A stretch of DNA of 64,000 bases from an uncultured virus (IMG/VR IMGVR_UViG_3300037483_001817) (IMGVR_UViG_3300037483_001817), one strand, 5' to 3'. Shown: positions 12,586 to 40,684, numbered from the stretch's first letter. Translations and numbers: made by a program. The notes: generated from the letters alone by a model not told the origin.

Positions 12586-12685
12586 GGTGCCTTTCACGAT
12601 GCTTCGGTGAGTAGAGGGGATGACGCTCCATAGAGCAGTTCGCGTGCCGATGGCGCGTGCTTGCAAGTCATCGAACGAACACGCT

Positions 12686-20326: not shown

Positions 20327-23300
20327 GTTTCAACCCACGCGACCGCAACCAGCGATCGCGACCTGACCTCCAAGTGCCGGACGAACGCCAACTCGGATTG
20401 TTTCAACCCGCGCGACCGCAGATAGCGAATCGCGACTGTGCCAAGACCAACTGCAAAGCCGTTTCAACCCGCACGAAGCGCGAAGCGCAACGCATGACCG
20501 GCGGAGGACAGCGGACGCTGCCGTACGCGTTTCAACCCGCGCGAACGCAAACTTCGTTAGCGATCACGACAGCCGTTACGTTTGCCGTTTCAACGGCGTC
20601 GCAGCGGCCCCGATACAGCAGACGGTTTCAACCCGCGCGAACGCAGCCAGCGATCGCGAACTCATCTCGAAGCTGCTGAGCAACGCCATTTCAACCCGCG
20701 CAACCGCAGCCAGCGATCGCGACGTGCACTCGGCGCCATCGCAGCCGATCCGATCGTTCAGTTTCAACCCACGCGACCGCAGACAGCGGTCGCGACCACG
20801 AGTCCGGGCAAGCCCTCGGGCGGAGGGCGAGGGTTTTCAACCTGCGCGACCGCAGCCAGCGATCGCGACGCGAGATACTCGAGATCGTGCATCATCGTTT
20901 CAACCCGCGCGACCGCAGCCAGCGATCGCGGCCTGCTCGCCGAGCTGGTGGCGAAGCGTGTTGTTGTCCGTTTCAACCCGCGCGACCGCAGCTAGCAATC
21001 GTGACGATACTTCCCTACTACCTGCTGTTTCAACCCGCGCGACCGCAGCCAGCGATCGCGACGCCTCGCCGCATCGCCTGAACGGTGTCGGCCGCCGTGT
21101 TTCAACCCGCGCGACCGCAGCCAGCGGTCGCGACCTCGATGAGAAGTTACCAGCGGCCTTCGTGCTTGCCGTTTCAACCCGCGCGACCGCAGCTGGCGAA
21201 CAGCGACGCTCCTCCTCGGAAACGGCCGGGAGGATGTCCAGGTGGTTTCAACCCACGCGACCGCAGACAGCGATCGCGACCGCTCGCACTCGTGGACGGG
21301 CCGAAGCTCCAGTGGTTTCAACCCGCGCGACCGCAGACAGCGATCGCGACGACGCATTCCTCGACGCGCGGATGGAGATTCGGCTTGTTTCAACCCGCGC
21401 GACCGCAGACAGCGATCGCGACCCTGCCACGAGCCACGGCCAGATCCATGACGCCGGAGTTTCAACCCGCGCGACCGCAGCCAGCGATCGCGACGCCTGT
21501 TGGCGACTTCAACGATACTCACGTCGACGGTGTTTCAACCCTCGCGACCGCAGCCAGCGATCGCGACGCGCAAGAGTGATCGGGTGCGCGCGAAGGTGCA
21601 GTCATTTCAACCCTCGCGACCGCAGACAGCGATTAGCGATTCCCTCAAGCACGAGTTGCTGCATGGCGGGTTTCTTGTTTCAACCCTCGCGTCGGCACCC
21701 TCGTCGTTTCAACCCGCGCGACCGCAGACAGTGATCGCGACACCACGAAGCGAGCCACGCCAGGATCGCGGCACGGCTGCTTCAATCCGCGCGACCGCCG
21801 CCAGCGGTCGCGACAACGCTTCCAAGCCGTGCTTCACGGTGCTGATCTGTCGTTTCAACCCGCGCGACCGCAGACAGCGATCGCGACATCTTCGGGCATT
21901 TTGCGTTGGTCATTCGCCGACGATGTTTCAACCCACGCGACCGCAGACAGCGATCGCGACCCTCCATGCGCAGGACCCCGTGCCTGACTACACGATCGTT
22001 TCAACCCGCGCGACCGCAGACAGCGATCGCGACGCGGCACTGGATCGTTCCCACGTGCAAGGGGTGCAAGTTTCAACCCGCACGACCGCAGACAGCGATC
22101 GCGACGAGCTTCAGAGGTGGGGTTGGCGACTTCGTTTCAACCCGCGCGACCGCAGACAGCGATCGCGACGCCGTGGATGGTCCGCGCGGAGTGGCGGCGG
22201 GACTTGTTTCAACCCGCGCGACCGCAGACAGCGATCGCGACCGTCCGCTGGATCCATGCGCCCGTAGCTTTCGCTGCGTTTCAACCCGCGCGACCGCAGA
22301 CAGCGATCGCGACGACTGCGTTGGTGGTCGCGGACAACGTCCGCGTGATCGTTTCAACCCGCGCGACCGCAGACAGCGCTTCGTGACACGCCTGGAGGCG
22401 CCGTGCAGAAGTTCGTTTCGCTCGTTTCAACCCGCGCGACCGCAGACAGCGTTCGCGACAAGGTGCCGTGGACGGTTGGCTCGCTGCGGATGATGTTTCA
22501 ACCCGCGCAACCGCAGACAGCGATCGCGACCTTTCCGAAGGACCTGGCGGCGGACGTCGAGGAGTTATTTCAGCCAGCGCGACCGCAGACAGCGATCGCG
22601 ACGTTCCACAACCAGCTCGCGATCGAGCCTCTACGGTCGTTTCAACCCGCGCGACCGCAGACAGCGATCGCGACTACTGAGGCCAGTGCCCACCAACAGC
22701 GACCCAAGGGTGTTTCAACCCGCGCGACCGAAGACAGCGATCGCGACCCGGCGTACGTCGATGGCGACGGACGCTTTCGAGTGTTTCAACCCGCGCGACC
22801 GCAGCCAGCGATCGCGAACTCATCTCGAAGCTGCTGGGCAACGCCATTTCAACCCACACGACCGCAGCCAGCAACTACAGGCTTGCGTACCCAGCCGTAC
22901 GCCCGCAGACGTCTAGGTGTTTCAACCCGCGCGATTCGCGATATGCCGCAGATCGCAACCGCAGACAACGATTGCGACAGCTAGTTATCGTCCTCGTCGG
23001 GTTCCTCGCTCTCCTCATTTCAACCCTCGCGACCGCCGCCAACGATCGCGACGCTGCTACTCTTCAATAAGGCTCGGCCTCCCATCGTTTCAACCCACGC
23101 GACCGCCGCCAACGATCGCGACGCCATCTCAGGGCACCTCAGCGTCCTTGTTTGTTTGTTTCAACCCGCGCAACCGCAGCCAACGATCGCGACCTGCTCG
23201 CCGAGCAGGCAGTGAAGCGTGTTGTTGTCCGTTTCAACCCGCGAGACGCAGCCAGCGCTCGGAACTCAAGCCAGCGTCGTCGCAACCTCAAGGTCGTAGC

Positions 23301-26300
23301 CGTTTCAACCCGTGCGACCACAGCCAGCGATCGGCCATGGTCCTCGCGACTACGCTGGTTCCCGATCACGTAGTTTGTTTCAACCCGCGCGACCACGGCC
23401 AGTGATCGCGACCTTGTAGCTCGCGCGCGATCTCGAGCAGCGTCCGCGCTATAGGCATCCACTGCACGTTGGTTTCAACCCGCGCGACCGCGACCGCAGT
23501 CGCGACCTGAATCCGCTCCGGGGGATTCTCTGGCACGCCGCGTTTCAACCCGCGCGACCGCAGCCAGCGATCGCAACTGGCTGACGTACGTCGCGTTCAC
23601 GTTGTGGGAGCTGTTTCAAGCTGCGCGATCACGGACAACGATCGCGATGACAAGCTTCCATCCAGCTTCCTGATTGGTGTTTCAACCCGCGCGACCGCGG
23701 ACAACGGCCACGACGCCGCAAATCACGATCATGGATACGCCGATCGAGCCGTTTCAACCTGCGCAACCGCAGTCAGCAATCGCGACCGGCGGCACGCCGG
23801 TCGACTGGATCGTCAATGACGTGTTTGTTTCAACCCGCGCGACCGCAGTCAGCGATCGCGACACTACTCGTCAAGGATCTCGGCTCGCCGACATGGCGGT
23901 TTCAATCCGCGCGACCGCAGCCAGCGATCGCGACGTGACAGAGCGTTCGTTTCAACCCGCGCGACCGCAGCCAGTGATCGCGACTCAAGCCCAGCTACCT
24001 CGGTCGCATGCTCGCGTTCGTTTCAACTCGCGCGACCGCAGACAGCGATCGCAGCGCTTCCGAGCGTCTCGTACGCCTCCTTCATTCGGCGGTTTTTCAA
24101 GCCCGCGCAATCACAGCCAGCTATCACGATCTGGAGGACGTTGCCTGCGAGGGAGAGACCGGTGACGTTTCAACCCGCGCGACCGCAGCCAGCGCTCGCG
24201 ACTCTCCGAGGCCGGGGAGTTTTTACTCGCGCGGCCCGCAGCCCGTGATCGCGACCCCACGCAGCCGAGGAAAGTCCACGGCCATGTCTTCGTTTCAACC
24301 CGCGCCACGTCACCGACAGCTCGTCGCGATTGCTGGCCGTGGCCGTGGTCGCGCGACTTCGCGCAGAGCTGTTTCAACCCACGCGACCGCAGACAGCGAT
24401 CGCGACTTTCCTCAGCGGCATTGCAGCTGTCGCTGGCATCGCGTTTCAACCCTCGCGACCGCAGCCAGCGATCGCGACGCGTGCGCCGGTCTCGGGTACT
24501 GGCTCTACCGGTTGGTTTCAACCTGCACGACCGCAGCCAGCGATCGCGACGGGCCATCTCGCAAACGGCGCGTCGTGACGCGTCGTCGTTTCAACCCGCG
24601 CAACCGCAGCCAGTGATCGCGACGATCTTGCGAGCTTCAGAGGTGGGTTGGCGACTTCGTTTAAACCCGCGCGACCGCAGACAGCGATCGCGACGTTCCT
24701 CGGCACCGTGCCGACGATCGATGTTCACGTGTGTGTTTGTTTGTTTCAACCCGCGCGACCGCAGACAGCGATCGCGACGCCACCTTCGATCGCGCAGACA
24801 TCGCGCATACGGTCGTTTCAACCCGCGCGACCGCAGATAGCGATCGCGACTCTTGAGCTCGCGCTCGTCGGCATCGGTGCCGCCGGGTTTCAACCCGCGC
24901 GACCGCAGACAGCGATCGCGACGTACACCTCCGCATCCACAACAGGCAGGTTTCAACCCACGCGACAGCAGACAGCAATCAGCGATCGCGACACGTCATC
25001 GAGCACTTGCCGTGGGGACGAGACCTCGTGTTTCAACCCGCGCGCCCGCAGCCAGCGGTCGCGACCTTCAACCTCAAGACACTGAGCCAGCACGCCAATC
25101 TCGTTTCAACCGCGCGACAACAGCCTGCGATAGCAGTCAGCGGTCGCGATTGTTGCCGTGCATCACGAGCAGTTTCAACCCGCGCGACCGCAGCCAGCAG
25201 TCGCGACCATCATCGGCGGCATCGTGGCGGTTGCGGGCCTCGCGTTTCAACCCACGCGACCGCAGCGGTCGCGACTTTTGTTTTCCGGCCTCCAACGTGG
25301 TGATCAGTTTCAACCCGCGCAACCGCAGCCAGCACTCGCGACACGCACCGATGATATCGGCTCGTGCTCGTTCGCGCCGGTTCAACCCGCGCGACCGCAG
25401 CCAGCGGTCGCGACCTGACCGGCCGAGATCGTAATCTCGGGAGAGATCACCTGGTTTCAACCCGCGCGACCGCAGCCAGCGGTCACGACCCGCACCATCG
25501 AGGTTCAACCCACGCGACCGCAGACAGTGATCGCGACCTCCTTCTTCGGTGGGGGCGGGGTCGGGTCGACGTTGTTTCAACCCGCGCGACCACAGACAGC
25601 GATCGCGACGCGCGTAATAGCCGCGCCCCAACTCACGTCGGGGTTTCAACCCGCGCGACCGCAAACAGCGATCGCGACTGGTACAGTCAATAGGTGTCGC
25701 TCCACGACTTCTACGTTTCAACCAGCGCGACCGCAGACGTCGATCGCGACGTGGCGCTCGGAGTCGATGAGGCTAGGATTCGCAGCGTTTCAACCCGCGC
25801 GACCGCAGACAGCGCTCGCGACTCTCGATCGCGAGTCCCTTGTTTCAACCCGCGCGACCGCAGACAACACACGCAACACGCAACACGACCTCGCCAGGAT
25901 GTTGACGCTGAGCCGTTTCAACCCGCGCGAACGCAGACAGCGATCGCGACGGAACAACAGACCGTCGGGTGCGGAGGTCGTGCTGTTTCAACCCGCGCGA
26001 CAGACAGCGATCGCGACATCCGAAGTCATCGCCGTTCTGCCGCTTGATCAGCCAGTTTCAACCCGCGCGACCGCAGACAGCGAATCGCGACTCGAGCGCG
26101 TGCACGACCTGCTCGCGTTTCAATCCGCGCGACCGCAGACAGCGATCGCGACCTCCGATTCCGATGCCCAAGCCTCGCTTGGTTTCAACCCGCGCAACCG
26201 CAGAGATCGCGACCTGCCTCACTGCGCGCCAGGATGTTATCCCGCTTGGCGTTTCAACCCAAGCGACCGCAGCCAGTGATCGCGACGATCGGCGTGGCAA

Positions 26301-29300
26301 CGGAGTTCCTCCCGCTGTTCACGTTTCAACCCGCGCGATCACAGCCAGTGGCCGAGCTGGGTACGCCCCGAGCCATGGCCAGATCCATGATGCCGGCGTT
26401 TCAACCCACGCGACAGCAGCCAGTGATCGCGACCATTAGGGCCTTCAGCATTTGAGGCGGCATGCTCGGCATTTCAACCCGCGCAACCGCAGCCAGCGAT
26501 CGCGACGACCTCGGGACCGCAGAACGTCGCACGGTTTCAACCCGCGCGACCGCAGACAGCGATCGCGACAATAGTTCTGCGGCAGGCCGCTGTCGCTGAG
26601 CTTCTTGTTTCAACCCGCGCGACCGCAGACAGCGATCGCGACAAGCCAGCACTTCGTGTGGTCCACACGCGTCGGATGTTTGTTTCAACCCGCGCGACCG
26701 CAAACAGCGATCGTGACGTTGCGCTACCGGCGCTTAACCCTTTGGACATGCCGGTTTCAACCCGCGCGACCGCAGACAGCGATCGCGATGGCGAGCCCTT
26801 CAGCACTTCAGGCGCGATGTCGCGGTTTCAACCCGCGCGACCGCAGACAGCGATCGCGACCTCTCCACCTTTCTTCAAGCTGCGCGACGCGAAGAGTTTC
26901 AACCCACGCGACCGCAGACAGCGATCGCGACTCCAGCGTGTCCAGGACGCCGAGGCCCAACGTGATGTTTGTTTCAAACCGCGCGACCGCAGACAGCGAT
27001 CGCGACCGTGGCTTTCACGCATTGTGCAGGTTGCGGCGCGTTTCAACCCGCGCGACCGCAGACAGCGATCGCGACGGCGGCAAGAAGTGGGGCACGCTTC
27101 GCTGGACCCCGGTTTCAACCCGCGCGACCCGCAGACAGCGATCACGCCTCGCGCTAGCCATCGTCTCGCGCGAAGTTATCGATCTGTTTCAACCCGCGCG
27201 ACCGCGCGACCGCAGACAGCGATCGCGACCGTCGATACCAGCGCGAGGCTACCGAGCCCGAGGACCCTCGAACACGCGCACGGCCTGTCGCGATCACTAT
27301 CTGCGATCGCGACCAGCTATTCCCGACCCTGACCTCGCGGTCGTAGGATGTTTCAACCCGCGCGACCGCAGACAGCGATCGCGACGATCCGATCTCGGCG
27401 CCAATCGAATTTACGCGTCAGGTTTCAACCCGCGCGACCCGCAGACAGCGATCGCGACCAGCTCGACGTCCGCTAGTGGGGCCAGTCCCCAACGGTTTCA
27501 ACCCGCGCGACCGCAGACAGCGATCGCGACCTCAGGGAGGAGCAGCAGGTCTGGCGCGTCGGTCATGTTTCAACCCGCGCGACCGCAGACAGCGATCGCG
27601 ACGAGCCCAGAGGCGCCATCGCCCGATGCTTCCGGTCGTTTCAACTCGCGCGACCGCAGACAGCGATCGTGACGCTGATCAGCACGACGTCGTCAGCGGT
27701 CGGGTCACTGTTTCAACCCACGCGACCGCAGACAGCGATCGCGATACTCCAGATTTGCGTGCGCAATGAGTTGGGCCGTGGGTTTCAACCCGCGCGACCG
27801 CAGACAACGATCGCGACGAGCTTCGACCTCGATCTCGCGGGTGACATGGAGTTCGTTTCAACCCGCGCGACCGCAGACAGCGATCGCGACGACCGGGTTG
27901 CAGCAGGCATCCTCTCGGTCGAGGTGGTTTCAACCCGCGCGACCGCAGACAACGATCGCGACGTGTGCGGACGCCAGTCGGGCTCGTGATAGAGACGGTT
28001 TCAACCCGCGCGACAGCAGACAGCGATCGCGACAATCCCCTGGCGCATCGGAAACGACGGCGTGCTTTTGTTTCAACCCGCGCGACCGCAGATAGCGATC
28101 GCGACAAGCTTTCACCGCCTCGCGGGGTCGGTGTTGCCCACATGTTTCAACCTGCGCGACCGCAGACAGCGATCGCGACCTGTCATGGGGGCATTCCTAG
28201 GGCTGGGAGTTTTCGAGTTTCAACCCGCGCGACCGCAGACAGCGATCGCGACACTTTGGATCGCCGACGATCCCGTAGTGCCTCTCGAGGTTTCAATCCG
28301 CGCGACCGCAGACAGCGATCGCGACGCGCTTGCCAACCATCTTCGCTGGGGTCGTGACGCTGTTTCAACCCGCGCGACCGCAGACATCGATCGCGACCTC
28401 CTGGGTTGACCCCTCGCGCGACGGCCGAGATCAAGTTTCAACCCGCGCGACCGCAGACAGCGATCGCGACGCCCCTTGATGCTCGCCCCGCCGCCGATCG
28501 CCGCATAGTTTCAACCCGCGCGACCGCAGACAGCGATCGCGACCTGGTGCGGTAAAAAAAGCTGCCACCGTCTGGAGTTGTTTCAACCCGCGCGACCGCA
28601 GACAGCGATCGCGACGTCGATGATCTCGTCGACGTACCTCTCTTCATGCGCGTTTCAACCCGCGCGACCGCAGACAGCGATCGCAACTTCCGGTCAACGC
28701 TTCCCTCGCGTAGCTCACGTCGTTTCAACCCGCGCGACCGCAGACAGCGATCGCGACGCGGACAAGTGCGTCCTTTGGGCGCCGGTTGTTTCAACCCGCG
28801 CGACCGCAGACAGCGATCACGACCCGCCGGCTGCTTCAGATACGCCATCGCGGTCGGCCAGTTTTAACCCGCGCGACCGCAGACAGCGATCGCGACCCTC
28901 TTGAGGCCGCTCCTGCGATACGAGTCCGAGGTATTTCAACCCGCGCGACCGCAGACAGCGATCGCGACACTCACTTCGACGGAGAACAAGGAGCTTCGCG
29001 AAACGTTTCAACCTGCGCGACCGCAGACAGCGATCGCGACCGGATTTGACAGAGCAGTCTCGTCGGCGTAACTCTGTTTCAACCCGCGCGACCGCAGCCA
29101 GCGATCGCGACCGTACCCAACCCCGGCGCCACGAGCTGATAACTCGTGTTTCAACCCGCGCGACCGCAGACAGCGATCGCGACTGTTGGTGTTTCGCCCG
29201 GGTCGTCGGTGAGCAGTCGCTTGTTTCAACCCGCGCGACCGCAGACAGCGATCGCGACCTGCCGCTGATCCTCGCCGGTGATACGCCTGCTATTGGTTTA

Positions 29301-32300
29301 AACCCGCGCGACAGCAGACAGCGTTCGCGACGCCGTGCCGACCAGCGCCCAGCCAAGACCTGCGTTGGTTTCAACCCGCGCGACCGCAGACAGCGATCGC
29401 GACATCACCATCGCTCTGGCCACGCCCGACGGACTCGATGTTTCAACCCGCGCGACCGCAGACAGCGATCGCGACCCGGCCGGCATGCTTTGTGGCGGAG
29501 AGCGTAGGAATCGTTTCAACCCGCGCGACCGCAGACAGCGATCGCCACCGTCCTCGACGGTCCCAACAATACACATCGGAGTTTGTTACAACCCGCGCGA
29601 CCGCAGACAGCGATCGCGACTCCGTCGATCGAGACACGGGGCTCCGAGGGAGAGTTGTTTCAACCCGCGCGACCGCAGACAGCGATCGCGACGGCGGCCG
29701 TTGGGCGCGCCTGCGGATCCGTCTGAATGTTTCAACCCGCGCGACCGCAGACAGCGATCGCGACGAGAGGGTGCTCCACGCGATGTCGTACGCCTCGTCA
29801 ACGTTTCAACCCGCGCGACCGCAGACAGCGATCGCGACCAGCCAGAGCGGGGGTCCTCGCTGCGAGCTCACCGATGTTTCAACCCGCGCGACCGCAGACA
29901 GCGATCGCGACTCGGCATGGTGACGATCTCCGTCGTTCACGACCTGTCGTTTCAACCCGCGCGACCGCAGACAGCGATCGCGACCTGGCGTTGACCGGAT
30001 GGGGAGGAGAACGTCCGACGGTTTCAACCCGCGCGACCGCAGACAGCGATCGCGACGAGCGGTCTCCGCTACGACCGGTTGCAGCATCAGGTGGTTTCAA
30101 CCCGCGCGACCGCAGACAGAGATCGCGACGGCAGTTCACGATGCGGACGTGCCCGTTCGCGAGGTTGACGTTTCAACCCGCGCGACCGCAGACAGCGATC
30201 GCGACAGCTGCGACTGCGGTCCGGTTAGAGTCACGTGGTGCTGTTTCAACCCGCGCGACCGCCGACAGTGATCGCGACTCGCCGCCTTGCGCCCCAACAT
30301 TGAGGAAATTCATGTCGTTTCAACCCGCGCGACCGCAGACAGCGATCGCGACAAGCCGTCGTTTCTTCATGTCACGGCATTACGGCCTGTTTAAACCCGC
30401 GCGACCGCAGACAGCGATCGCGACTGGAGTCGGACTTCCCGGTCGAGGGCTGGTGCCACTGTTTCAACCCGCGCGACCGCAGACAGAGAGATCGCGACGT
30501 CTTGCGTCGTCCTCATCGACGCGGTGGTGTCACAGTTTCAACCCGCGCGACCGCAGACAGCGATCGCGACCCGATATAGCGGGACATCTCAGCCGCCTCC
30601 GCTGGGGGTTTCAACCCGCGCGACCGCAGCCAGCGATCGCGACGCGGCCGTGCCCTCGGGCCGCAGGACGATCTCGACGTTTCAACCCGCGCGACCGTAG
30701 ACAGCGATCGCGACCTGGGCCAGGACTTCGCCGCCACTCTCGGTGTGAGGGTTTCAACCCGCGCGACCGCAGACAGCGATCGCAACATACGCGTGCCCAT
30801 GTAGCGAGGGGCAAGTGGGACGATTCAACCCGCGCGACCGCAGACAGCGATCGCGACCGGCCGCCAGGATCCCGCCGAGTCCGGCGTGGTAAACGTTTCA
30901 ACCCGCGCGACCGCAGACAGCGATCGCGACCGGAGCGAGACCTCGACACGGCCAGCGGCGGCGTTGTTTCAACCCGCGCGACCGCAGACAGCGATCGCGA
31001 CGGGGTCGCAACTGTCGACTGACTGATAGTGTCCGGTTTCAACCCGCGCGACCGCAGACAGCGATCGCGACTTCCGGTCGCGTCGTCGACGATCTGGGCA
31101 GCAACCCTGTTTCAACCCGCGCGACCGCAGACAGCGATCTCGGCCCGATATAGCGGGACATCTCAGCCGCCTCCGCCGGGGATTTCAACCCGCGCGACCG
31201 CAGATAGCGATCGCGACCTGCGCGCTCGACTCCGCGGCTGCACTCATCGGGCAGTTTCCACCCGCGCGACCGCAGACAGCGATCGCGACCGCCGCCAACG
31301 CGAATCACCAACGGCGTTTGCAGGCAGTTTCAACCCGCGCGACCGCAGACAGCGATCGCGACAGGCCACCAGAAGGGCCTCAAGTAGCAACTCAAGGTTG
31401 TTTCAACCCGTCGTCCGCCTCAAGCCCGAGTGGATCTGGTTTCAACCCGCGCGACCGCAGACAGCGATCGCGACGTACCCCACCCACGGCGCCGCGAGTT
31501 ACAGCCCGCGGTTTCAACCCGCGCGACCGCAGACAGCGATCGCGACGGTCTTCCGACCAGGCTCGGCGTCGCTTGGACGACGGTTTCAACCCGCGCGACC
31601 GCAGACAGCGATCGCGACCTGGAGTCGGACTTCCCGGTCGCGGGCTGGTGCCACTGTTTCAACCCGCGCGACCGCAGACAGCGATCGCGACGTCCTCCCC
31701 GTCGCGAGCTTCGTCCTCGTCGGCGGTGTTTCAACCCGCGCGACCGCAGACAGCGATCGCGACCCGTGGATGGTCCGCGCGGAGTGGCGGCGGGACTTGT
31801 TTCAACCCGCGCGACCGCAGACAGCGATCGCGACCGTTGATTCGTTGTTGCGCTGTTCGCGCTTCTGCCTGTTTCAACCCGCGCGACCGCAGACAGCGAT
31901 CGCGACGCCGTCCGTGATCTCGATTGTCTTGCTGAGCGCGTTGTTTCAACCCGCGCGACCGCAGACAGCGATCACGACGTCGTGAACTCGTGCCGTCGCA
32001 ACACACAAACGAGCTGTTTCAACCCGCGCGACCGCAGACAGCGATCGCGACGCGCAACTTGAATCAGGCGAGGGCCACGTCCCAGTCGTTTCAACCCGCG
32101 CGACCGCAGACAGCGATCGCGACAGTCTCCGCGCAAGATCGGCGGACGAGTTGAGTACGTGTTTCAACCCGCGCGACCGCAGACAGCGATCGCGACTCGC
32201 TCAACCAAGCCGCAAATGAAGCGCTGTTTCTTGGTTTCAACCCGCGCGACCGCAGACAGCGATCGCGACGGCGTCGTAGAGCGGGCGCAGGTGGGGTGCG

Positions 32301-33504
32301 GCGTTGTTTCAACCCGCGCGACCGCAGACAGCGATCGCGACCCTGCTTCGCCCACGTCGGCGCGAATGCGTCTTGATGTTTCAACCCGCGCGACCGCAGA
32401 CAGCGATCGCGACGAGCGCGTCGATACAGAGCTCAAGGCACTCGGTCTGGTTTCAACCCGCGCGACCGCAGACAGCGATCGCGACCTGCGAGGCTCACGG
32501 CGTGCCCACGATCACTGACTACGTTTCAACCCGCGCGACCGCAGACAGCGATCGCGACGTGTTCTCCGCCTGGCTCGCGAGCTTGCGCATGTTCGTTTCA
32601 ACCCGCGCGACCGCAGACAGCGATCGCGACACCTTCGAGGCCGACGCTGAGACACTGACTACACTTGTTTCAACCCGCGCGACCGCAGACAGCGATCGCG
32701 ACACCGATCGACTCATCGCGTGGGCCAGCTATCAGGGCTGGTTTCAACCTGCGCGACCGCAGACAGCGATCGCGACGTCGGCTGAACAACCAGAATCGAG
32801 CTCGGGTCCTGATGTTTCAACCCGCGCGACCGCAGACAGCGATCGCGACGACGATCAAGGCGGTGCTTCTTGCCTGGGACGTCTGGTTTCAACCCGCGCG
32901 ACCGCAGACAGCGATCGCGACCTTCCGATCGAGATCATCGGAGCGCAAGCGTGGTGGTTTCAACCCGCGCGACCGCAGACAGCGATCGCGACTCGCCGAC
33001 CGTCGGCGGGTAGCCCTCGCGCTGCTCGTTGTTTCAACCCGCGCGACCGCAGACAGCGATCGCGACCAGTTCGGATCGTCATACCAGAGCGTCCAGAGCT
33101 CGTGGTTTCAACCCGCGCGACCGCAGACAGCGATCGCGACGTGCCAAGGTACGGTCGTGGTGGCCGAGCCGGCTGCTGTTTCAACCCGCGCGACCGCAGA
33201 CAGCGATCGCGACTCGGCGCGACATCGGCGACCGCGCACCGTCCGCGGCGTTTCAACCCGCGCGACCGCAGACAGCGATCGCGACGGCGGCGCGTACCAC
33301 AAGGTCACGTGGGACGAGTGGCAGTTTCAACCCGCGCGACCGCAGACAGCGATCGCGACCTCACTGGGGCAGCGAGGACAGTATTCGGTGGTATTTGTTT
33401 CAACCCGCGCGACCGCAGACAGCGATCGCGACACGTGCGATCGGTGCAGCTCACGAGCGCCACCCGTTGTTTCAACCCGCGCGACCGCAGACAGCGATCG
33501 CGAC
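20327..33504 (-). CRISPR. large type I-C-like CRISPR array, roughly 180 repeats (estimate)
   Basis: 36-nt repeat GTCGCGATCGCTGTCTGCGGTCGCGCGGGTTGAAAC (minus strand) with 9-bp stem and 3' GAAAC; ~34-38 nt spacers; perfect near 33504, degenerate toward 20327; partial repeat at 20302-20319. Confidence 0.99.
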
Positions 33505-33681
33505 AGCAGTGCCTAAAAAAGGCATCAGGCCGTGCACTTCCAACGTAGAAGCGCACGACCTGCATTGTTCAATCATGAACGACTATGCAATTGTCAGAGA
33601 CCTCCGAGATTCCCAACGAATCTCGAACCGTAGCGTGGCGAGCGGCTCAGCCGCTTGCGGTCAGCACGCCACCGCTCGCGG
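33505..33681 (-). promoter_or_regulatory. CRISPR leader
   Basis: Non-coding and AT-richer, between the cas7 stop and the best-conserved repeat; contains GCGAGCGG/CCGCTCGC inverted repeats. Confidence 0.75.
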
Positions 33682-34764
33682 TCAGCTCACCGCGTCGTCG
33701 ACCGCCTCATCGCCCGCGTCGTCGCTCGGCGGCGGAGGCGCGTGCAGACCGAGGTGGTCGTAGGCAACCTTGCGGTTGAGCGAGAGCACCGAACCCTCGC
33801 GCACGTAGATGTCCACCCCGTGAACCATGGTGAGCCGGTTGCGGATCTTCCGCTTGAGGCACACGTCGGTCACGAAGCACTTGTGCGTGTACGAGTTCAC
33901 GCGCGGGTGGTTCGCGTTGTCTGGATCACCGTTGGGGTTGGATCGGATCGCCTCCCAGATCAGCCACGCGTCCCAGCGATTCCCGATGACGGCGTCCTCT
34001 GCCAAGCCGGCCATCACGTGAGCGGCCGACATCTCCGGGTGCAGATCGATCACGAAGATCTCGACGTTGGGCGTGGGCGATGCGCCGACAACAACGTCGA
34101 AGTCACTATAGCTCTGCGGATCCGGCACCCTCTGCTGGATGTTGATCAGCTCGCGCAGGAGGGCCGGCGAGCAGTCGCCGCGCTTGGACGCGTGCTTGGC
34201 GATGATGAGCTTGCGCACCGCCAGCATGGGACGTGTCGCCGACGCGTCGTTGTCGAAGATGTGGAGGCAGTCGTCGTAGAACCGCCCGAGATCGCGGTTG
34301 GTCATGCCCGACTTGTCCGCCCAGAACGGATTGACGCTGATTGGCGTGAAGAAGAGAGCGTAGTCCACGATCCACTTGGACCCCATGGTCTGGTTCGCGT
34401 CCTGGTTGTCCGCCAGCGTCTCGTTGGCGACCGCGACGCGCGTGATCGGCACCTCCAGGATGTGCGGAATGTTCACCGAGTTGGTGATCTCGAGCTGGAT
34501 CGGGCCGTGGAGCGAACCCGCGTCGTAGCCTCCCTCGCCCTTACCTGCGAGTACACCGCCGAACAGCCTCAGATCCGGATAGATCTGAACGAGGTGTCCC
34601 TGGGCGGCGGCCGACATCCTGTCGCGATCTTCGTAGCCGACCTTCGCCTTGGCGCCGTTGCCGTTCTTGCCGTTGCCGTTGCCGTTGCCATTCTTGCCGT
34701 TGCCGTTCTTGTCGTGGTTCGGACTCTTCGCTGGCTTCTTCATTTTCTTGGTTCTCTCTTTCAC
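33682..34764 (-). CDS. cas7: type I-C Cas7 (Csd2), circularly permuted; ATG at 34743 is an alternative start
   Basis: DLRLFG, GPIQL, ITRVAV, TMGSK, FDNDASA.R and RKLII.KH precede NPNGDPD..N.PR..VTDVCLKRKIRN. Confidence 0.93.
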   Translation of the reverse strand: MKERTKKMKKPAKSPNHDKNGNGKNGNGNGNGKNGNGAKAKVGYEDRDRMSAAAQGHLVQIYPDLRLFGGVLAGKGEGGYDAGSLHGPIQLEITNSVNIPHILEVPITRVAVANETLADNQDANQTMGSKWIVDYALFFTPISVNPFWADKSGMTNRDLGRFYDDCLHIFDNDASATRPMLAVRKLIIAKHASKRGDCSPALLRELINIQQRVPDPQSYSDFDVVVGASPTPNVEIFVIDLHPEMSAAHVMAGLAEDAVIGNRWDAWLIWEAIRSNPNGDPDNANHPRVNSYTHKCFVTDVCLKRKIRNRLTMVHGVDIYVREGSVLSLNRKVAYDHLGLHAPPPPSDDAGDEAVDDAVS

Positions 34765-34806
34765 CTTTTCGTTTTCGTCGTCACGTGTCTTATCTCGGTG
34801 TTGTTG

Positions 34807-35331
34807 TCAGTCGTCGTTGTCCTCCTCGTCCTGGTCCCCGTCGTCGGACAAGGACTGCTTCGGGACTTCGACCTCTTGCGCGCGAGCGCGAGCTGCCGTC
34901 CGCTTGCGGTACTCTTCCCACAACCACCCCGTGTAGTTGTTGAAGCCGATCCAGAACAGCATCTGCTCTTCCTTGGTGAGCCGCTGTGGGATTTGCGCCA
35001 GGCTCAGCTCTGCTTCGTCGGTCTCCGTGAGCGGTCCCTGGACACCGAGACGCGTCACCAGGGCGTTCATGCGCTGCTGGGACAGCATCGCCATGCCCTG
35101 CCGCCGCTTGCTGTTGAGCTTCTTGATGTGCTTGGTGTGCAGCGTCAGCACGTCGGGAAGGACGTTGTACGGGCTCTGCACGATCTCGGTTCGCGACAAG
35201 CTCGAATGTTGGGGATGGTTGATCGCGATGTTCTGGACGTAGTTCGCCTCGGCCATGATGCAGCCGATAACCATCGGGATCGGCATCACGATGAGGTTCT
35301 GACTCTTGAGAGGATCTGCGTGAATCGTCAC
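34807..35331 (-). CDS. cas11: internally translated Cas11 small subunit (predicted)
   Basis: In-frame GTG at 35331 preceded by AAAGGA, just after LLKLDLIR; matches the known I-C internal start arrangement. Confidence 0.6.
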   Translation of the reverse strand: MTIHADPLKSQNLIVMPIPMVIGCIMAEANYVQNIAINHPQHSSLSRTEIVQSPYNVLPDVLTLHTKHIKKLNSKRRQGMAMLSQQRMNALVTRLGVQGPLTETDEAELSLAQIPQRLTKEEQMLFWIGFNNYTGWLWEEYRKRTAARARAQEVEVPKQSLSDDGDQDEEDNDD

Positions 35332-36864
35332 TGGTATTCCTTTTCGGATGAGATCGAGTTTGAGCAGACTGCACCGAACCGGCAGCAGCCGCCGCCATTG
35401 CTTGCGGCCGTCGTTGTCGCCGGGATACGTGTTGCAGCGCTTCAGCGCTGCCGCCGCAATCTCCACGGGAACGCGCTCACCCTGGAGAATGCAGCGCAGC
35501 ATCCCGTCGACGGTGCTGGACGGAAACCGCTCGTCCATGCGCGTGCGCAGTGCCGCCAGGAGCTGCGAAAGCGGTCGAGGCCGGCTACTGCTAGGGATCG
35601 GCAAGGTCATGTCGTCCATGTACTGCTGGATGCGCCGCCGCAGATCGCCGATCGTGCCGCTGACCGCATTCCGGTACACGACGCGGCCGTTGTCGGAGAT
35701 CAGCAGGGAGTGGAAGTAGTCCTCGCGGAACAGCGGCATGGTGCGGCCCGTACGATGAACCGCGAGCAATTCCTCCACGACCTTCTCGTCGGCCTCGACC
35801 GCCAACAGCTCGCGCACGGACGCCTCGTCCGCCACTTCGATCCGCAGGAACGTCTCGGCCGGCTCAATACTCGGTCCCGCGATCAGCGCTGTCACGGCCC
35901 CGCGGACCGGCATCTCCGTATGCGGATCGCCGGTCCAGATGAGAAACACTGCGTCGCCAGGTTGAGGTTTGCCCGAGCTATTGAGGTACACGCCGCCGCG
36001 CGGCTTGTAGCGCGCGCCGATCGTTCCGTCGGCGCGCTTGAACGGAATGGCCACGCGCTCTAGCAACAAATTCGCAGCGGCGGCCACGCCTTCGGCGACG
36101 TCTTGGCTGACAGGGGCGTTCGCTCCCTGTAGCAGACCGAAGGAACACCAGGCCGGCTGGTTGTTCGACGAGAGAGCCGAGCTGCCGCCCTTCGCTCCGG
36201 GCAACCCCTTGATCGGCGGCTGCGTGTTGCACAGAGGACCGCGCCGACCCGTGACAATGCACGTGATCATCTCTCCGCCAGCGCCGCCTGACTGGATCGG
36301 ACGGTGCGCGCGGATCCACTCCTTCACGCGAGGGCTCTCGTAGACCGGTACCAGCGCGTTGTTCGCGCGAACGACGACCGTGACCCACTCCGAGCCCGTC
36401 AGCGGCTTCCCGTCGCTCCAGCCGAGGCACTTGACGGCAGCCTCCGCCGGAGTCCCATACGTGCCGTCCGCGAGGTCGTCGACGAACTGCGACAGGGCCT
36501 CGGCGTAGGGGTCGCGCGTATCCACGGCCATCTGCCGTAGGTGATCTCGATAGACGCCTTGCAGCTCGAGTCCGCGCTGCGCGACCTTCGCGGCTCTCGC
36601 CGCCGTCGTCGCTTTCGCATCGGTCTTGTGGGCGGTGTAGCACGCGACAGATTCCACGACGGCACTGACCGTGTTGCCTGACGTACGCCCCGATTGCATG
36701 GGCGCACGCAGTGTCACGTAGGGCTCGGTACCCGACGTGATGCGTTGACCAGCGAGCCAGCGACCTTTCAGATCGATGACGATCTGATAGTCCACTCGGC
36801 GATCCGCGAAACCTGGATCCACCAGGTTCTTGCGCTCCGCGTAGCTGAAGAGGTTGTGGTGCAT
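34807..36864 (-). CDS. cas8c: type I-C Cas8c (Csd1)
   Basis: RTSG, CIVTG..P.IKG, SSNN..SFG..QG.NAPVS, EEQ..F.IGF; lies between cas5 and cas7. Confidence 0.92.
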   Translation of the reverse strand: MHHNLFSYAERKNLVDPGFADRRVDYQIVIDLKGRWLAGQRITSGTEPYVTLRAPMQSGRTSGNTVSAVVESVACYTAHKTDAKATTAARAAKVAQRGLELQGVYRDHLRQMAVDTRDPYAEALSQFVDDLADGTYGTPAEAAVKCLGWSDGKPLTGSEWVTVVVRANNALVPVYESPRVKEWIRAHRPIQSGGAGGEMITCIVTGRRGPLCNTQPPIKGLPGAKGGSSALSSNNQPAWCSFGLLQGANAPVSQDVAEGVAAAANLLLERVAIPFKRADGTIGARYKPRGGVYLNSSGKPQPGDAVFLIWTGDPHTEMPVRGAVTALIAGPSIEPAETFLRIEVADEASVRELLAVEADEKVVEELLAVHRTGRTMPLFREDYFHSLLISDNGRVVYRNAVSGTIGDLRRRIQQYMDDMTLPIPSSSRPRPLSQLLAALRTRMDERFPSSTVDGMLRCILQGERVPVEIAAAALKRCNTYPGDNDGRKQWRRLLPVRCSLLKLDLIRKGIPVTIHADPLKSQNLIVMPIPMVIGCIMAEANYVQNIAINHPQHSSLSRTEIVQSPYNVLPDVLTLHTKHIKKLNSKRRQGMAMLSQQRMNALVTRLGVQGPLTETDEAELSLAQIPQRLTKEEQMLFWIGFNNYTGWLWEEYRKRTAARARAQEVEVPKQSLSDDGDQDEEDNDD

Positions 36865-36873
36865 GTCTCGCTC

Positions 36874-37506
36874 CTACTGTTGAGTTGCCGCCACGACGGC
36901 CTGGTAGGAGGGAATGCGGACGGAGCCGTTCACGAGGCGCGCGTCGAACATCAGCGGCTCGGGAGGCGACTTCTTGAAGTTTCGTCCGTACAACATCGGA
37001 CCGAGGGGGCGATCGACACCCTGCTCGATCGTCTGGTAGCTCTCGGGCGCCTCCATGAGGTCGCAGACGAACGGGAACATTCCGAAGCACGGCGTATGGT
37101 GGAGCTGCCCGCGCCTCAGGTAGCGCTCGAACATCTCCGTGAATGCGGTGACATTGTGCTGTGCCTTGTCATCCAGCTCGAAATAGGCGGTGAACACGTA
37201 GTCGACGTCGTACAGACCGACCGTGTTGCGCTGCGTGCGTACGTCTTCCACGTTGAAGGGCTGGCCCGAGGAGCCGGTGCACGTCACTTCGTTCGTACGC
37301 ATGTTGAAGTAACGGATCGGGCGCAGGACCTCGATCAACGTCGGCCTCCAGTGGAGTCCAGGGTGCCAAAGCACCGCTTCGAAGATGCCCACGATCGCCG
37401 ACGGAGTCGGCACGTCGTACGTCAGCCGCTCGACGCGGCACAGCGGTCGGGTAATGACCGCGCGCTCGGCCTTTGCCCGAATCTTGAAGTCTTTACTGCG
37501 TTGCAT
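36874..37506 (-). CDS. cas5: type I-C Cas5 (Cas5c/Cas5d)
   Basis: TRP..RVER.TYDVPTPSA..GI.EA..W.P, VL.PIR, NEV, QR, GQ..H.P.FG; GAGGAGG RBS. Confidence 0.93.
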   Translation of the reverse strand: MQRSKDFKIRAKAERAVITRPLCRVERLTYDVPTPSAIVGIFEAVLWHPGLHWRPTLIEVLRPIRYFNMRTNEVTCTGSSGQPFNVEDVRTQRNTVGLYDVDYVFTAYFELDDKAQHNVTAFTEMFERYLRRGQLHHTPCFGMFPFVCDLMEAPESYQTIEQGVDRPLGPMLYGRNFKKSPPEPLMFDARLVNGSVRIPSYQAVVAATQQ

Positions 37507-37559
37507 TTCTAGTCCTCCTCTTTGTGTGTTCGTTCTTGGCCGGTCCAGTTGCCGTCCAA

Positions 37560-37796
37560 TCAGGGTCGGTAGTTCATGGCCGGATTGCTGGACAACGTTC
37601 TCGGCACGTATCCGGCATTTCGCAAGGCTGTTTCAAGATCGTCCGAGAATTCGGAATCTACGGACCGCCGTCTCTGGGCGTATTCCCACAGCAAATCCTG
37701 CGCAGTCGGATCTTTGACACTGAGCGGGACCTTACCGCGTGGACAAGTCGGGTATTTGTCACTCTGAAACTCCCCATCGATCAGATGTGCGCTCAC
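37560..37796 (-). CDS. small hypothetical protein between cas3 and cas5
   Basis: AAGGAG RBS; co-directional with the cas operon. Confidence 0.65.
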   Translation of the reverse strand: MSAHLIDGEFQSDKYPTCPRGKVPLSVKDPTAQDLLWEYAQRRRSVDSEFSDDLETALRNAGYVPRTLSSNPAMNYRP

Positions 37797-37827
37797 TTTA
37801 GTTCTCCTTGGGTACTAACCAATTCGT

Positions 37828-39927
37828 TCAAGCGTCGAGTAGGCCGAGCTGGTCGTAGCTTCGGGTGCCGCGCAGGTAGACGACGGCATCCGCCACCCAA
37901 CGCGCGCGGTCTTGTTGCAGGTATCGATCGCGCTCCTCGACCGCAACCCAGATCACGAAGTCCATGAGCTGCCGCAGTAGCAACTTGTCGGGTCCATGTG
38001 CGGCCAGGCGTTTGATCAACGCCTTGACAGATTCCTGCCCCTCGCGCGGCGGTGCGGGAACCACGATGGGCACCAAGCCGGCATCGCCGAGCGCCACGTC
38101 GCCCGGCACGGGATGCCTCCCACCGACGCGCAGGGTCTTGCCGGCGAGGGTGCGAAAGCGCAGTTGCTCGCGATCGCGCTGTAGATCCTCCGCCCACGTA
38201 CAACGACCGCGGCTGAGCTTCAGGTCTCGATCGTAGCTGTCCCACGTCATCTTCGCGGTGAGCTGGAGAGGGCCGTCCAGCAATAGCAGCTGAGTCACGT
38301 GTGCTTCGAGCGAGAGCTCAGCCGCCGGGAAAACGCGGTACGCACCGGCACGATGATCACCGGCGTCTGCACGCTGGCTCGTAACGGTGATCGATGGCAG
38401 GTCGGACATCTCGCGCCAGACAACCCCGAAGGTCACGTCGCGCGTCTCGCCCACGGAATCCGTGGCGAGGCGCAGCGGCCTCCCCTCGCGCTTGTGATCG
38501 TGCACCACGCGGAGCACCTCGCGTCTGTCTCTCGGACACATGCGCGACGACAGATAGAACCAACGCCGCGTTCCAGCAACGTCCGCAAACGAGCGCATCG
38601 ATCGTGGGCTGTTCCACACGACGAGACAATCTGGGTGCGTACGTGTCTTCAGGCTGCGGAGTAGCTTCCGGGGCGTCGGAACCTTGGCGCGCGGCTTCGG
38701 CCACGTCGCCGCAGTCCTGGGTTCAAGGCGCCCGAACGCCTCCGGCATCCCGATTTCTCTGGCGCCCTCGACGATCGGATAAGGGACGGTCGAGACGAAC
38801 GTGACGGTCGATCGAAAGTGCGCAACCAAGGTCCTCAAGGTGTCGACGACAACGGGCGCGATCGGTGCGGGCAGTCGCCACGCGTCTTCCACCAAGACCA
38901 TGGCGCACGCGATTCGATGCAGGCGACGGCACGAGGCTGGACGGTTGTCGAACAAGAGACCGACAACGTCGCGCAGCGTCGTGGCGATAACCGGCGCATC
39001 CCAGTCTTCGATCGCGACGGGGATACCGCGGTTTCGCGAATAAAAGGCAGACGGCACGACGATCGCTTCACCAAGGATTCCTCGCAGCTCCTCCACGCGC
39101 TGCTCAAGCGCGGCCTGTGTCGCGCAGACAATGACGACGCGCTGTAGGCCGTGCCGGACGGCATGCCCCACCGCATAGCAAGCCAAGCTCCGCGCGTCGA
39201 CGATGCTCGACGGCGCCGAGAGCTGATACCAGCCCAAAGGTTCGGTGGAGATCTGCTCACACGTGTGCCAGAAAGCATCACGGAGGCGCGTCAGCTCGTC
39301 GCGCTTAGTCCAATGCCGTGGAGGATGCGCGAGCAAGCGTTCGTGTAAGCTCGCTAGATTCACAGGCTGCGGAGTGGGTTGCGGCGTGTCCGACACGCTG
39401 GCTTCCCATGCTTGTGCTTCCGCACGATCGGCATCGACGTGCGCCGAGAAGATGAGGCGCGTGAAGAGCTCGCGGTGCGCGGTGCCAGAGAAGCTGCGCG
39501 ATGCAATGCGATGCCCGAGAATCCCCGGCGCGATGTCTCGTAAGCAGTGGCTGTAGGTCGCGCCTTCCGTGCAGATGCCAGGCAGCTCGCTCAGATCAGG
39601 AATTCCTGCGTGCGTTCCTGCGATCGCGAGAGCGACCAACTCTCGAACCTCTGCGGGCAGCCAGCGGCACGCGTACCACGCGCCGACGAACGAATGGTTC
39701 ACGCGATCGTTCGCGAACGGAACACGCACGTGTTTCTGAAACTCGACAGCGGCCTTGCCTAGGTCGGACCACAGTGCGGCGACATGGGCTTCAGGTGCGC
39801 AGCCAAAGAGCGCGGCCAGATTACGCGCACGCGCTGCGGTCGCTCGAATGTCCTCATCTAACGATCGCACGTAGCGACCCGCAGATCGCGCTATCAGCTG
39901 TGTCGTCTTCGCCATGCCCTTGTTCAC
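37828..39927 (-). CDS. cas3: Cas3-like protein with degenerate HD nuclease and SF2 helicase motifs
   Basis: SDLGKA..FQ, NHS..GA, FSAHVDAD, EDWDAPVIATT, CRRLHRIA, LSSRMCP retained in order; catalytic motifs substituted. Confidence 0.88.
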   Translation of the reverse strand: MNKGMAKTTQLIARSAGRYVRSLDEDIRATAARARNLAALFGCAPEAHVAALWSDLGKAAVEFQKHVRVPFANDRVNHSFVGAWYACRWLPAEVRELVALAIAGTHAGIPDLSELPGICTEGATYSHCLRDIAPGILGHRIASRSFSGTAHRELFTRLIFSAHVDADRAEAQAWEASVSDTPQPTPQPVNLASLHERLLAHPPRHWTKRDELTRLRDAFWHTCEQISTEPLGWYQLSAPSSIVDARSLACYAVGHAVRHGLQRVVIVCATQAALEQRVEELRGILGEAIVVPSAFYSRNRGIPVAIEDWDAPVIATTLRDVVGLLFDNRPASCRRLHRIACAMVLVEDAWRLPAPIAPVVVDTLRTLVAHFRSTVTFVSTVPYPIVEGAREIGMPEAFGRLEPRTAATWPKPRAKVPTPRKLLRSLKTRTHPDCLVVWNSPRSMRSFADVAGTRRWFYLSSRMCPRDRREVLRVVHDHKREGRPLRLATDSVGETRDVTFGVVWREMSDLPSITVTSQRADAGDHRAGAYRVFPAAELSLEAHVTQLLLLDGPLQLTAKMTWDSYDRDLKLSRGRCTWAEDLQRDREQLRFRTLAGKTLRVGGRHPVPGDVALGDAGLVPIVVPAPPREGQESVKALIKRLAAHGPDKLLLRQLMDFVIWVAVEERDRYLQQDRARWVADAVVYLRGTRSYDQLGLLDA

Positions 39928-40030
39928 CTAGACGTCTGCACGCTTGGTCATAGCTAACGCGACGTCTAACAGCGTGCGCATCCTTGCGTCAAGGTGTTTC
40001 ACATGTACATGCGTTTGACATGCGAGGCAT

Positions 40031-40240
40031 GTGTCCGTAATGTGTGCTGTGCCTACGCGATCCCCCAGGATTAAAACCAAGAAGCGAGACACGACCGTGT
40101 TCCTTCAGGTGAAGGTCAGCCGTCGCGCGGCCGACTTGCTTCGCAAGCGGGCGAAGCGCGCGTTACGCTCGCAGGCAAGTTACTTGCGGGCTGTTATCTA
40201 CCGAGACCTCGGCATTTTCAGCGAAATAGACAGCCGCTGA
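40031..40240 (+). CDS. small ribbon-helix-helix-like DNA-binding protein, divergent from cas3
   Basis: VFLQVKVS..L...A....RSQASYLR.VI pattern. Confidence 0.55.
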   Translation: MSVMCAVPTRSPRIKTKKRDTTVFLQVKVSRRAADLLRKRAKRALRSQASYLRAVIYRDLGIFSEIDSR

Positions 40241-40288
40241 TCCGAGAACAGCGCCGCTGTCAGGCCGCACGGGCAGAATAGATCTCCC

Positions 40289-40663
40289 ATGCCCAAGAGC
40301 CAGCGCCGTACGTTCGTTGTCAAAGATCCGATCTCGCCTGCGGACGCCAACTCGCCAGCAGAGCGCAAAAAGAAACAGCGATTCGTCAACGTACTCATAC
40401 AGGCGATTACAGCTGCCACAGAGCATGGCCCTAGCCCCAAAGCGTGGCATGTCGGCGTCGAAATGCGGTCGCCGGTCGAGGTTCGCGATCGCTTCTTCGT
40501 GACGTTCGACGTCGAGGGAAAACGGGTGAGCGCCATCGGACCCATGTCGGCGGACGTCGTGGACCACCTGCTCTGGTTCGTCGAGAGCGGACTGCAAGCA
40601 GATTTGCCAGGAGCCAAGGCCGGCTCGTGCACGCGAAAGATCACAAACCTGTCAAACCATTGA
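40289..40663 (+). CDS. hypothetical protein
   Basis: Follows the RHH-like gene. Confidence 0.5.
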   Translation: MPKSQRRTFVVKDPISPADANSPAERKKKQRFVNVLIQAITAATEHGPSPKAWHVGVEMRSPVEVRDRFFVTFDVEGKRVSAIGPMSADVVDHLLWFVESGLQADLPGAKAGSCTRKITNLSNH

Positions 40664-40684
40664 CGCGCCGTGGTTCGAGCTACG

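Follow-up and report, generated by a model that had tools for sequence, protein, structure and literature searches.

A type I-C CRISPR-Cas locus with a Cas3 homologue that has lost its catalytic motifs, a circularly permuted Cas7 and a long array on a putative mobile element

The DNA described here is a stretch of 64,000 nucleotides (nt; 63.5% GC) from an uncultured virus (IMG/VR IMGVR_UViG_3300037483_001817). The whole stretch is referred to below as the window, and all positions are given in its coordinates. Between positions 20327 and 39927 it carries a derived type I-C CRISPR-Cas locus, in which the genes for a Cas3-like protein, Cas5c, Cas8c and Cas7, all on the minus strand, are followed by a 177-nt leader and an array of 177 repeats. 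Pfam, NCBIfam and PADLOC agree in assigning all four Cas proteins to type I-C. The closest solved structures are those of the I-C Cascade and the I-C Cas3, and the models that match the four proteins are solely those of I-C or I-B Cas3, Cas5, Cas7 and Cas8. The features of the locus, including open reading frames (ORFs) and their lengths in amino acids (aa), are as follows.

37828-39927, minus strand: cas3-like gene, 699 aa; PADLOC Cas3c, E 7.2e-70 over residues 7-693.
37560..37796, minus strand: 78-aa ORF between cas3-like and cas5c, with an AAGGAGA ribosome-binding site.
36874-37506, minus strand: cas5c, 210 aa; NCBIfam Cas5c, 90 bits (cut-off 85).
34807-36864, minus strand: cas8c, 685 aa; Pfam Cas_Csd1, E 2.7e-48, 165 bits (cut-off 27).
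34807..35331, minus strand: candidate internal cas11 frame within cas8c, 174 aa, starting with GTG at codon 512, with AAGGAA 11 nt upstream.
33682-34764, minus strand: circularly permuted cas7, 360 aa; Pfam Cas_Cas7, E 1.4e-57.
33505..33681, minus strand: leader, 177 nt, separating the stop codon of cas7 from the first repeat.
33562-33526, minus strand: 17-pair hairpin followed by a T-run, within the leader and ending 21 nt before the first repeat.
20327..33504, minus strand: CRISPR array, 177 repeats of 36 nt and about 176 spacers, with the newest end at 33504 and the decayed end at 20327.

The original prediction, made from the sequence alone, had described an intact operon directly upstream of a leader and an array of about 13 kb, with cas1, cas2, cas4 and cas6 missing from the window. 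This anatomy is borne out. The four minus-strand ORFs (33682-39927) adjoin the leader, and models of cas1, cas2, cas4 and cas6 find no match in the 162 (107 + 55) other ORFs, a statement that holds for the window. The same prediction had called the Cas3 dead and the Cas7 permuted, and both descriptions hold at the level of motifs and of segment order, respectively.

The Cas3-like protein combines the full Cas3c architecture with degenerate catalytic motifs. Intact HD nuclease and superfamily 2 helicase motifs were looked for and not found in it; Pfam detects neither a helicase nor an HD domain, and the NCBIfam cas3_HD model scores 41.4 bits, which is under its cut-off of 43.45. The comparison with the solved I-C Cas3 structures 8zns_A and 8g9u_P and with canonical homologues gives the following picture.

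Walker A: canonical PTGGGKT, Cas3-like PSSIVDA.
Motif II: canonical LDEAQ, Cas3-like VEDAW.
Motif VI: canonical GRCNR, Cas3-like QRADA.
HD motif I: canonical QKHL, Cas3-like DEDI.
HD motif II: canonical LHDLGK, Cas3-like WSDLGK.
HD motif IV: canonical GHHAG, Cas3-like GTHAG.

Walker A, motif II and three histidines of the HD motifs have thus been replaced. The NHS histidine and the VDAD aspartates are retained in the HD region, which overall keeps two HD aspartates and two histidines. Because Walker A, motif II and motif VI are gone, ATP-driven translocation by this protein is very unlikely. The same motif losses suggest, in line with the original prediction, that the system does not cut.

These losses are a property of the family to which the protein belongs. 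In the close members, Walker A is lost in all 10 sequences that cover it and motif II is likewise lost; DEDI and WSD are present in 8/8 members covering those HD motifs, and GTH is present in 9/9. Walker A and motif II are also lost in the more distant P0133 (47% identical) and P0135 (37% identical). Among 1.84 billion representatives, a profile search places only four family members above the canonical continuum (P0125 with 1366 bits, P0133 with 1100, P0135 with 467 and P0136 with 329, the remainder having at most 267 bits). The motifs form a graded series, in which the canonical state is seen in P0137 and P0138, Walker A is degenerate in P0136 (APHGASKI), where the DE of motif II and the HD motifs are still present, and P0135 and P0133 lack both Walker A and motif II, P0133 still having all HD histidines. 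At the end of the series, the clade of the window additionally lacks the three HD histidines.

Relatives of the locus were found in metagenomes for three of its proteins, namely 8 permuted Cas7, 13 Cas3-like and 13 Cas8c sequences. The 13 Cas3-like relatives are 47-100% identical to the protein of the window, and none has a precomputed Pfam domain; the next match (27%) is canonical. Eight of them are of full length (674-714 aa) at 47-83% identity. When the cas3-like gene was allowed to drift neutrally in a simulation restricted to substitutions, stop-free copies numbered 2/300 at 83% identity, 1/300 at 80% and 0/300 at both 70% and 47%. Within the close clade, the slowest 30-residue stretches of the Cas3-like protein have 0.23-0.5 changes per site as compared with a family mean of 0.86. 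Residues 324-353, which contain the degenerate motif II, have 0.23 changes per site, and residues 234-263, with the degenerate Walker A, and 83-112 have 0.47 each. The linker between the HD and helicase regions (173-233) is the most variable part, with 1.4-1.7 changes per site.

Eight contigs (359440, 61582, 7169, 10975, 18543, 18447, 17218 and 8823 bp), paired on the basis of equal length in bp, are inferred to carry both a Cas3-like and a Cas8c relative, with identities to the window of 70-83% and 67-90%, respectively. By this comparison the Cas3-like protein appears to diverge about as fast as Cas8c and no faster. On the 17218- and 8823-bp contigs, the Cas3-like protein is nearer to the window (76-81%) than Cas8c (67-71%) or Cas7 (68-69%). 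This order is the opposite of that on the other contigs and hints at recombination between operon modules. The four cas genes are all covered both by contigs of permafrost run X5 and by contigs of run X9, with a nucleotide identity of about 85-96%; the junction of cas8c and cas5c is bridged by X5 record 20 and X9 record 27, and cas5c is joined to cas3-like on an X9 contig. Scans of viral contigs with Cas7, the Cas3-like protein, the Cas3 alignment and a 22-mer of the repeat gave no match, nor did a scan of metagenome contigs with the Cas3 alignment. The original prediction had taken this to be a maintained I-C derivative and had named stops in relatives as a sign of neutral decay. The relatives of Cas7, Cas3-like and Cas8c exist, the eight full-length Cas3-like ORFs are intact, and neutral drift would not leave them so (at most 2/300 simulated copies are stop-free). 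From these sequences the locus appears to be maintained, not decaying.

The Cas7 profiles of Pfam, NCBIfam and PADLOC all match the protein of the window as two stretches whose order is swapped. Residues 259-344 align with residues 3-92 of Cas7c from Desulfovibrio vulgaris (7kha_B; E 3.5e-13), and residues 62-231 align with residues 113-282 of the same chain (E 2.8e-22). The polypeptide therefore begins with an N-terminal tail rich in Lys, Asn and Gly, continues with the segment that corresponds to canonical residues ~113-282, a linker and the segment that corresponds to ~3-92, and ends with an acidic C-terminal tail. It is homologous to canonical Cas7c (Csd2) and does not have its segment order. 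A search of 5.8 billion proteins found eight relatives (P0001-P0008; E at most 5.8e-128, coverage 82-98%), beyond which the matches fall abruptly to canonical Cas7c at about 50% coverage. The order of the segments, the Lys-rich Asn/Gly N-terminal tail, the linker and the acidic C-terminal tail are common to 9/9 sequences.

AlphaFold modelled Cas7 poorly from a 9-row alignment (pLDDT 51.6) and better from an 84-row alignment (pLDDT 73.3, pTM 0.71). The top Foldseek matches of the latter model are the I-C Cas7 chains 9jhb_C and 7kha_B, with about 190-207 of 286 columns aligned. Such a partial alignment is expected, because a sequential aligner follows only one of two swapped segments.

The Asn/Gly repeat in the N-terminal tail of Cas7 (34654-34715) is encoded by a tandem repeat of 6/15/27 nt. 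Metagenome contigs vary in length by 1-3 nt at 34687-34692, and a spike in sequencing depth falls in the same bin. Acidic C-terminal tails are found on both Cas7 (33682-33730) and Cas8c (34807-34850) and are kept in kind in 9/9 Cas7 and 14/14 Cas8c sequences.

Cas5c is presumably the endonuclease that processes the precursor of the CRISPR RNA (crRNA), because no cas6 is present. The NCBIfam model gives Cas8c 135 bits, under the equivalog cut-off of 218.65, and the protein is therefore divergent. Type I-C Cas11 arises from an internal start. An R-K/R-G-x-P-V stretch at the start of the candidate frame is conserved in 14/14 Cas8c sequences, and a Cas11 may arise from an internal start in this cas8c as well.

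The 78-aa ORF has no family match. Its GC content is 55% and its GC content at third codon positions (GC3) is 0.61, as compared with a GC3 of 0.73-0.87 in the cas genes, among which cas3-like has 0.73 and the others 0.81-0.87. One X9 contig joins position 37507 to 37833 and skips the interval of this ORF, so that the relative on that contig may be without it. The ORF has the look of a recently inserted gene, perhaps a regulator or one of the anti-CRISPR type.

Type I-C repeats consist of a hairpin and an 11-nt 5' handle and are usually about 32 nt long. The array of the window is read on the minus strand from the 177-nt leader, because the hairpin and tail of the repeat on that strand (GTCGCGATCGCTGTCTGCGGTCGCGCGGGTTGAAAC) have the I-C form. 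The 3' end of the repeat is GGGTTGAAAC, with an 11-nt handle of the form ...TTGAAAC, and the repeat folds into a hairpin of 9-10 bp, after which 10-11 nt remain as a single-stranded tail (-17 kcal/mol, z -2.93). With repeat copies counted at up to 8 edits each, 153/176 inter-repeat intervals are 30-42 nt long, the mode being 36. The perfect repeats at the leader, which the original prediction had also reported, are part of a gradient. From the cas-proximal to the far end, the thirds of the array (59 repeats each) contain 43, 14 and 10 perfect copies. The 10 repeats closest to the cas genes are without exception perfect, and in the closest 30 there are 28 perfect copies.

The older part of the array (20327-26500) is a mosaic of two repeat variants, with the loop GCAGCCAG or GCAGACAG, and also has shortened spacers and intervals of up to 198 nt with repeat remnants. 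Seven pairs of spacers in the array are near-duplicates, for example those at 22170-22205 and 31764-31798. A scan of metagenomes with a 20-mer of the repeat found five loci, of which two, L003 and L004, have arrays. L004 has 2 repeats and an unrelated flank. L003, a 1.3-kb contig, has 16 repeats that differ from the repeat of the window at 2-7 positions and zero true spacers in common with it, and the arrays of the lineage therefore differ in content. It is on the gradient of repeat decay and on this fragment that we base the suggestion, also made in the original prediction, that the array is still acquiring spacers.

The hairpin and T-run in the leader resemble a terminator, yet they are placed so as to halt read-through into the array. 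This element could be an attenuator or a structure belonging to the leader.

The spacers have no bias toward a coding strand (77 sense-like versus 76 antisense-like, by a classifier whose accuracy on the genes of the window itself is 75%), which would fit DNA targeting. A search of 185,579 species genomes for a 22-mer of the repeat gave no match, and therefore no host array with this repeat is known.

The surroundings of the locus contain the following further features.

11722-12738: ParB, found by the Pfam/PHROGs scan.
48748-49776: tyrosine integrase, the sole recombinase seen among 40 ORFs scanned with Pfam and PHROGs.
40685-41110, minus strand: 141-aa ORF with the sequence LLDGHHRLAAS, 757 bp upstream of cas3-like; no Pfam or PHROGs match.

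The window also has PAPS-reductase-like, radical SAM, 2OG-Fe oxygenase, R2K ATP-grasp, NT5C and HAD_SAK_2 genes, and 16/40 ORFs scanned have PHROG matches. The Pfam and PHROGs scans show no structural phage genes and no tnsA/B/C, tniQ or Mu transposase genes among these ORFs, and the window has no tRNA genes or matches to Rfam RNA families, the CRISPR repeat families included. PADLOC finds nothing in the 162 other ORFs besides weak matches to pVip, SspD and 2OG. With its ParB, integrase and phage auxiliary genes, the setting looks like that of a phage or a large mobile element. The look-alikes of the integrase in the Atlas give no usable taxon for the host.

Several of the neighbouring genes deserve a brief description. 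The radical SAM ORF (508-1347, plus strand) weakly matches the prokaryotic viperin, pVip (E 1.9e-7), and the PAPS-reductase-like ORF (3834-4655, plus strand) weakly matches SspD (E 8.2e-8); judged from these matches, the element may use both in defence or in the modification of nucleotides. The look-alikes of the 141-aa ORF in the Atlas are viral hypothetical clusters, one of which has ParB_N in 11% of its members, and this ORF may encode a small ParB-like domain protein. The ORF at 46364-47047 contains a tandem duplication of 150 bp (46719-47021; 2 copies, 92% identical). Three sediment metagenome runs contain 80-98% of the sampled words of the window, two of them possibly being its own source, and 16 soil, permafrost or other runs contain small shares of the words; no RNA data set is among these 19 runs.

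By combining these observations, it is possible to propose how the system might work. In the reading that we favour, to which we give about an even chance, a phage-like or plasmid-like mobile element carries a Cascade that binds DNA and does not degrade it processively, and the disabled Cas3 is kept as an accessory that binds the R-loop. The array would be transcribed on the minus strand, and Cas5c would cleave the repeats at the base of the hairpin, leaving an 11-nt 5' handle. Cas5c, Cas8c, probably the Cas11 made from the internal start, and a backbone of permuted Cas7 would then form the Cascade, which would find matching DNA and open an R-loop. The processing of crRNA, the assembly of Cascade and the formation of the R-loop would all follow from membership in the I-C family. 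As the Cas3 homologue would be unable to hydrolyse ATP and most likely unable to cut, the target would not be shredded. The non-catalytic Cas3 would instead dock on Cas8c at the complete R-loop and hold the displaced strand, so that Cascade would be locked on its target and would block the transcription or replication of competing elements or of host genes. The spacers would be supplied by Cas1-Cas2(-Cas4) encoded elsewhere in the element or in the host. We infer that Cas3 docks and that nothing is cut, and likewise what is targeted and where the spacers come from.

In the I-C system of Neisseria lactamica, according to the available excerpt of its description, contacts with Cas8 bring in Cas3 only once the R-loop is full, and the HD site receives the displaced strand (10.1101/2023.08.05.552134). 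Since the canonical I-C Cas3 docks in this way, a disabled Cas3 could still dock and hold the displaced strand. A bolder form of the proposal, which we regard as somewhat less than evenly probable, is that the locus is a natural programmable DNA clamp of the 'dead-Cas3' kind, with about 176 guides and a Cas3 that has neither ATPase nor nuclease activity, and that it silences or blocks competitors or host genes. The permuted Cas7 would place Lys/Asn/Gly-rich and acidic tails on every subunit of the backbone and thereby present a repeated surface to a partner.

Several points count against the favoured reading. The view is limited to 64 kb, and one of the relatives lies on a contig of 359,440 bp; an active cas3 and cas1, cas2 and cas4 could be present elsewhere. 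The databases of relatives contain called ORFs only, so that broken copies would go unseen. The whole array, compared by megablast with 50,697 phage and 72,556 plasmid records, gave no match to a spacer target, an exact word of 28 nt being needed for a match. The rest of the window contains no protospacers, the best match being 21 nt with 2 mismatches, and because no protospacer was found, no protospacer-adjacent motif can be inferred. No sigma-70-like promoter was seen in 33300-41300. Lastly, the Asp, Ser and Thr that replace the HD histidines are oxygen ligands that could still bind a metal, and they lie in conserved blocks, so that the pocket may be a remodelled metal site still able to nick.

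An unlikely alternative explanation is that the system still cuts. The remodelled HD pocket (His to Asp, Ser and Thr) would be a metal-dependent nickase that acts on the displaced strand with no translocation. All the replacements are potential metal ligands, two HD aspartates and two histidines are kept, and the distant P0133 and P0136 have the full set of HD motifs with lost or degenerate ATPase motifs, which suggests an 'HD only' stage. However, every close member lacks three of the five histidines that are conserved in the HD motifs, the score for cas3_HD is below its cut-off (41.4 < 43.45 bits), and no HD domain is found by Pfam. A slightly less probable arrangement is one in which the host completes the system. 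The element would give the guides and the Cascade, the host would give an active I-C Cas3 and Cas1-Cas2-Cas4, and the part of the disabled Cas3 would be to regulate, or to act as a decoy protecting the element against the I-C system of the host itself. The window has no adaptation genes and yet its array is large and appears to grow at the leader end, which such an arrangement would explain. In the excerpted literature, the plasmid-borne type IV-A3 acquires spacers in trans (10.1101/2023.06.23.546257) and phages mimic Cas proteins as an anti-CRISPR strategy (PMC10910872). On the other hand, the repeat 22-mer occurs in 0/185,579 species genomes, which leaves this arrangement without a known candidate array in a host; a protein that is a decoy and nothing more would need neither its own Cascade genes nor 176 spacers; and the Cas3-like protein co-occurs with a Cas8c relative on 8 contigs, as paired by equal length.

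We give little credence to the proposal that Cascade and the disabled Cas3 recruit some unrelated recombinase, nuclease or modifier, for which the small ParB-like ORF upstream, the 78-aa ORF in the operon and the tyrosine integrase would be the candidates. Cascades without Cas3 do guide transposases, as in type I-F3 according to the excerpt of PMC11127173, and the conserved new tails of Cas7 and Cas8c could be docking surfaces. The 162 ORFs, however, contain no Tn7-like or Mu-like genes and have only the weak PADLOC matches to pVip, SspD and 2OG, and the X9 contig skips the interval of the 78-aa ORF. That the locus is a decaying relic, an I-C system that has lost its adaptation genes and Cas3 activity and is heading for complete loss, is very improbable. 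The loss of catalytic motifs, the heavy degeneration of the far end of the array and the GC3 of cas3-like (0.73, under the 0.81-0.87 of the other cas genes) are what such a relic might display. Against this, the four ORFs are intact, the relatives are of full length down to 47% identity, at most 2/300 simulated neutral copies are stop-free, the leader-proximal repeats are perfect, and the Cas3-like protein diverges no faster than Cas8c.

The reading of a non-cutting Cascade with a retained Cas3 accessory can be set beside the known systems. Canonical type I-C (Dvulg) is represented by the Cascade of Desulfovibrio vulgaris (7KHA, 8DEX) and the Cascade-Cas3 of Neisseria lactamica (8G9U). The locus shares with it the gene order cas3-cas5c-cas8c-cas7, the lack of cas6, a repeat with a hairpin and an 11-nt tail, and the best family and structure matches. 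The features of I-C membership found here are the Cas8c (Csd1) signature, Cas5c without Cas6, and the stem-loop repeat with its handle. Unlike the canonical system, the locus has a Cas3 that has lost its ATPase motifs and three HD-motif histidines, a Cas7 that is circularly permuted and has new tails, a repeat of 36 nt instead of about 32 nt, and no cas1, cas2 or cas4 beside the operon. No description of a circularly permuted Cas7 was found in the literature, the permutation in the available part of PMC3150331 being that of the HD domain. In titles and the opening lines of abstracts, no description was found of a Cas3 that is disabled in both domains yet retained; a 2022 Cell survey of virus-encoded CRISPR-Cas systems, which lies outside this coverage, may mention the family.

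The huge-phage I-C variants and type IV-A are the precedents that come nearest to the locus. The huge-phage variant, in the excerpt at hand of Al-Shayeb et al. 2020 (PMC7162821), is likewise phage-borne, derived from I-C and without Cas1 and Cas2, and has Cas5d-like processing without Cas6. It has an unrelated helicase in the place of Cas3, whereas the locus described here has a true Cas3 homologue with dead motifs; a permuted Cas7 is not mentioned for it in that excerpt. Type IV-A, which is plasmid-borne, is also found on a mobile element without an adaptation module, and its interference is nuclease-free and proceeds by suppressing gene expression, as given in the available parts of PMC11519345 and 10.1101/2023.06.23.546257. 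It uses Csf proteins and an active DinG, in contrast to the I-C Cas proteins with lost helicase motifs of the window; Csf1, Csf2, Csf3 and DinG have no match among the four Cas proteins in Pfam, NCBIfam or PADLOC. The type I systems without Cas3, such as the transposon-associated Cascade of I-F3 (PMC11127173, in excerpt) and the incomplete I-C with a Cas8-Cas5 fusion, resemble the locus, as read here, in that Cascade binds DNA under RNA guidance and the DNA is not degraded. Their cas3 has been lost completely, whereas the cas3 of the window is still present and conserved in a disabled form, and transposase genes are not seen.

If the favoured reading is true, a natural lineage that keeps a doubly disabled Cas3 would show that Cas3 can have a selectable role that is not catalytic. 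Engineered Cascade without Cas3 is already in use for gene repression, and the disabled Cas3 would offer a ready-made lock for the R-loop. The permuted Cas7 would matter for how the backbones of Cascade assemble, and the family would extend to type I-C the range of CRISPR systems that mobile elements carry and that work without a nuclease.

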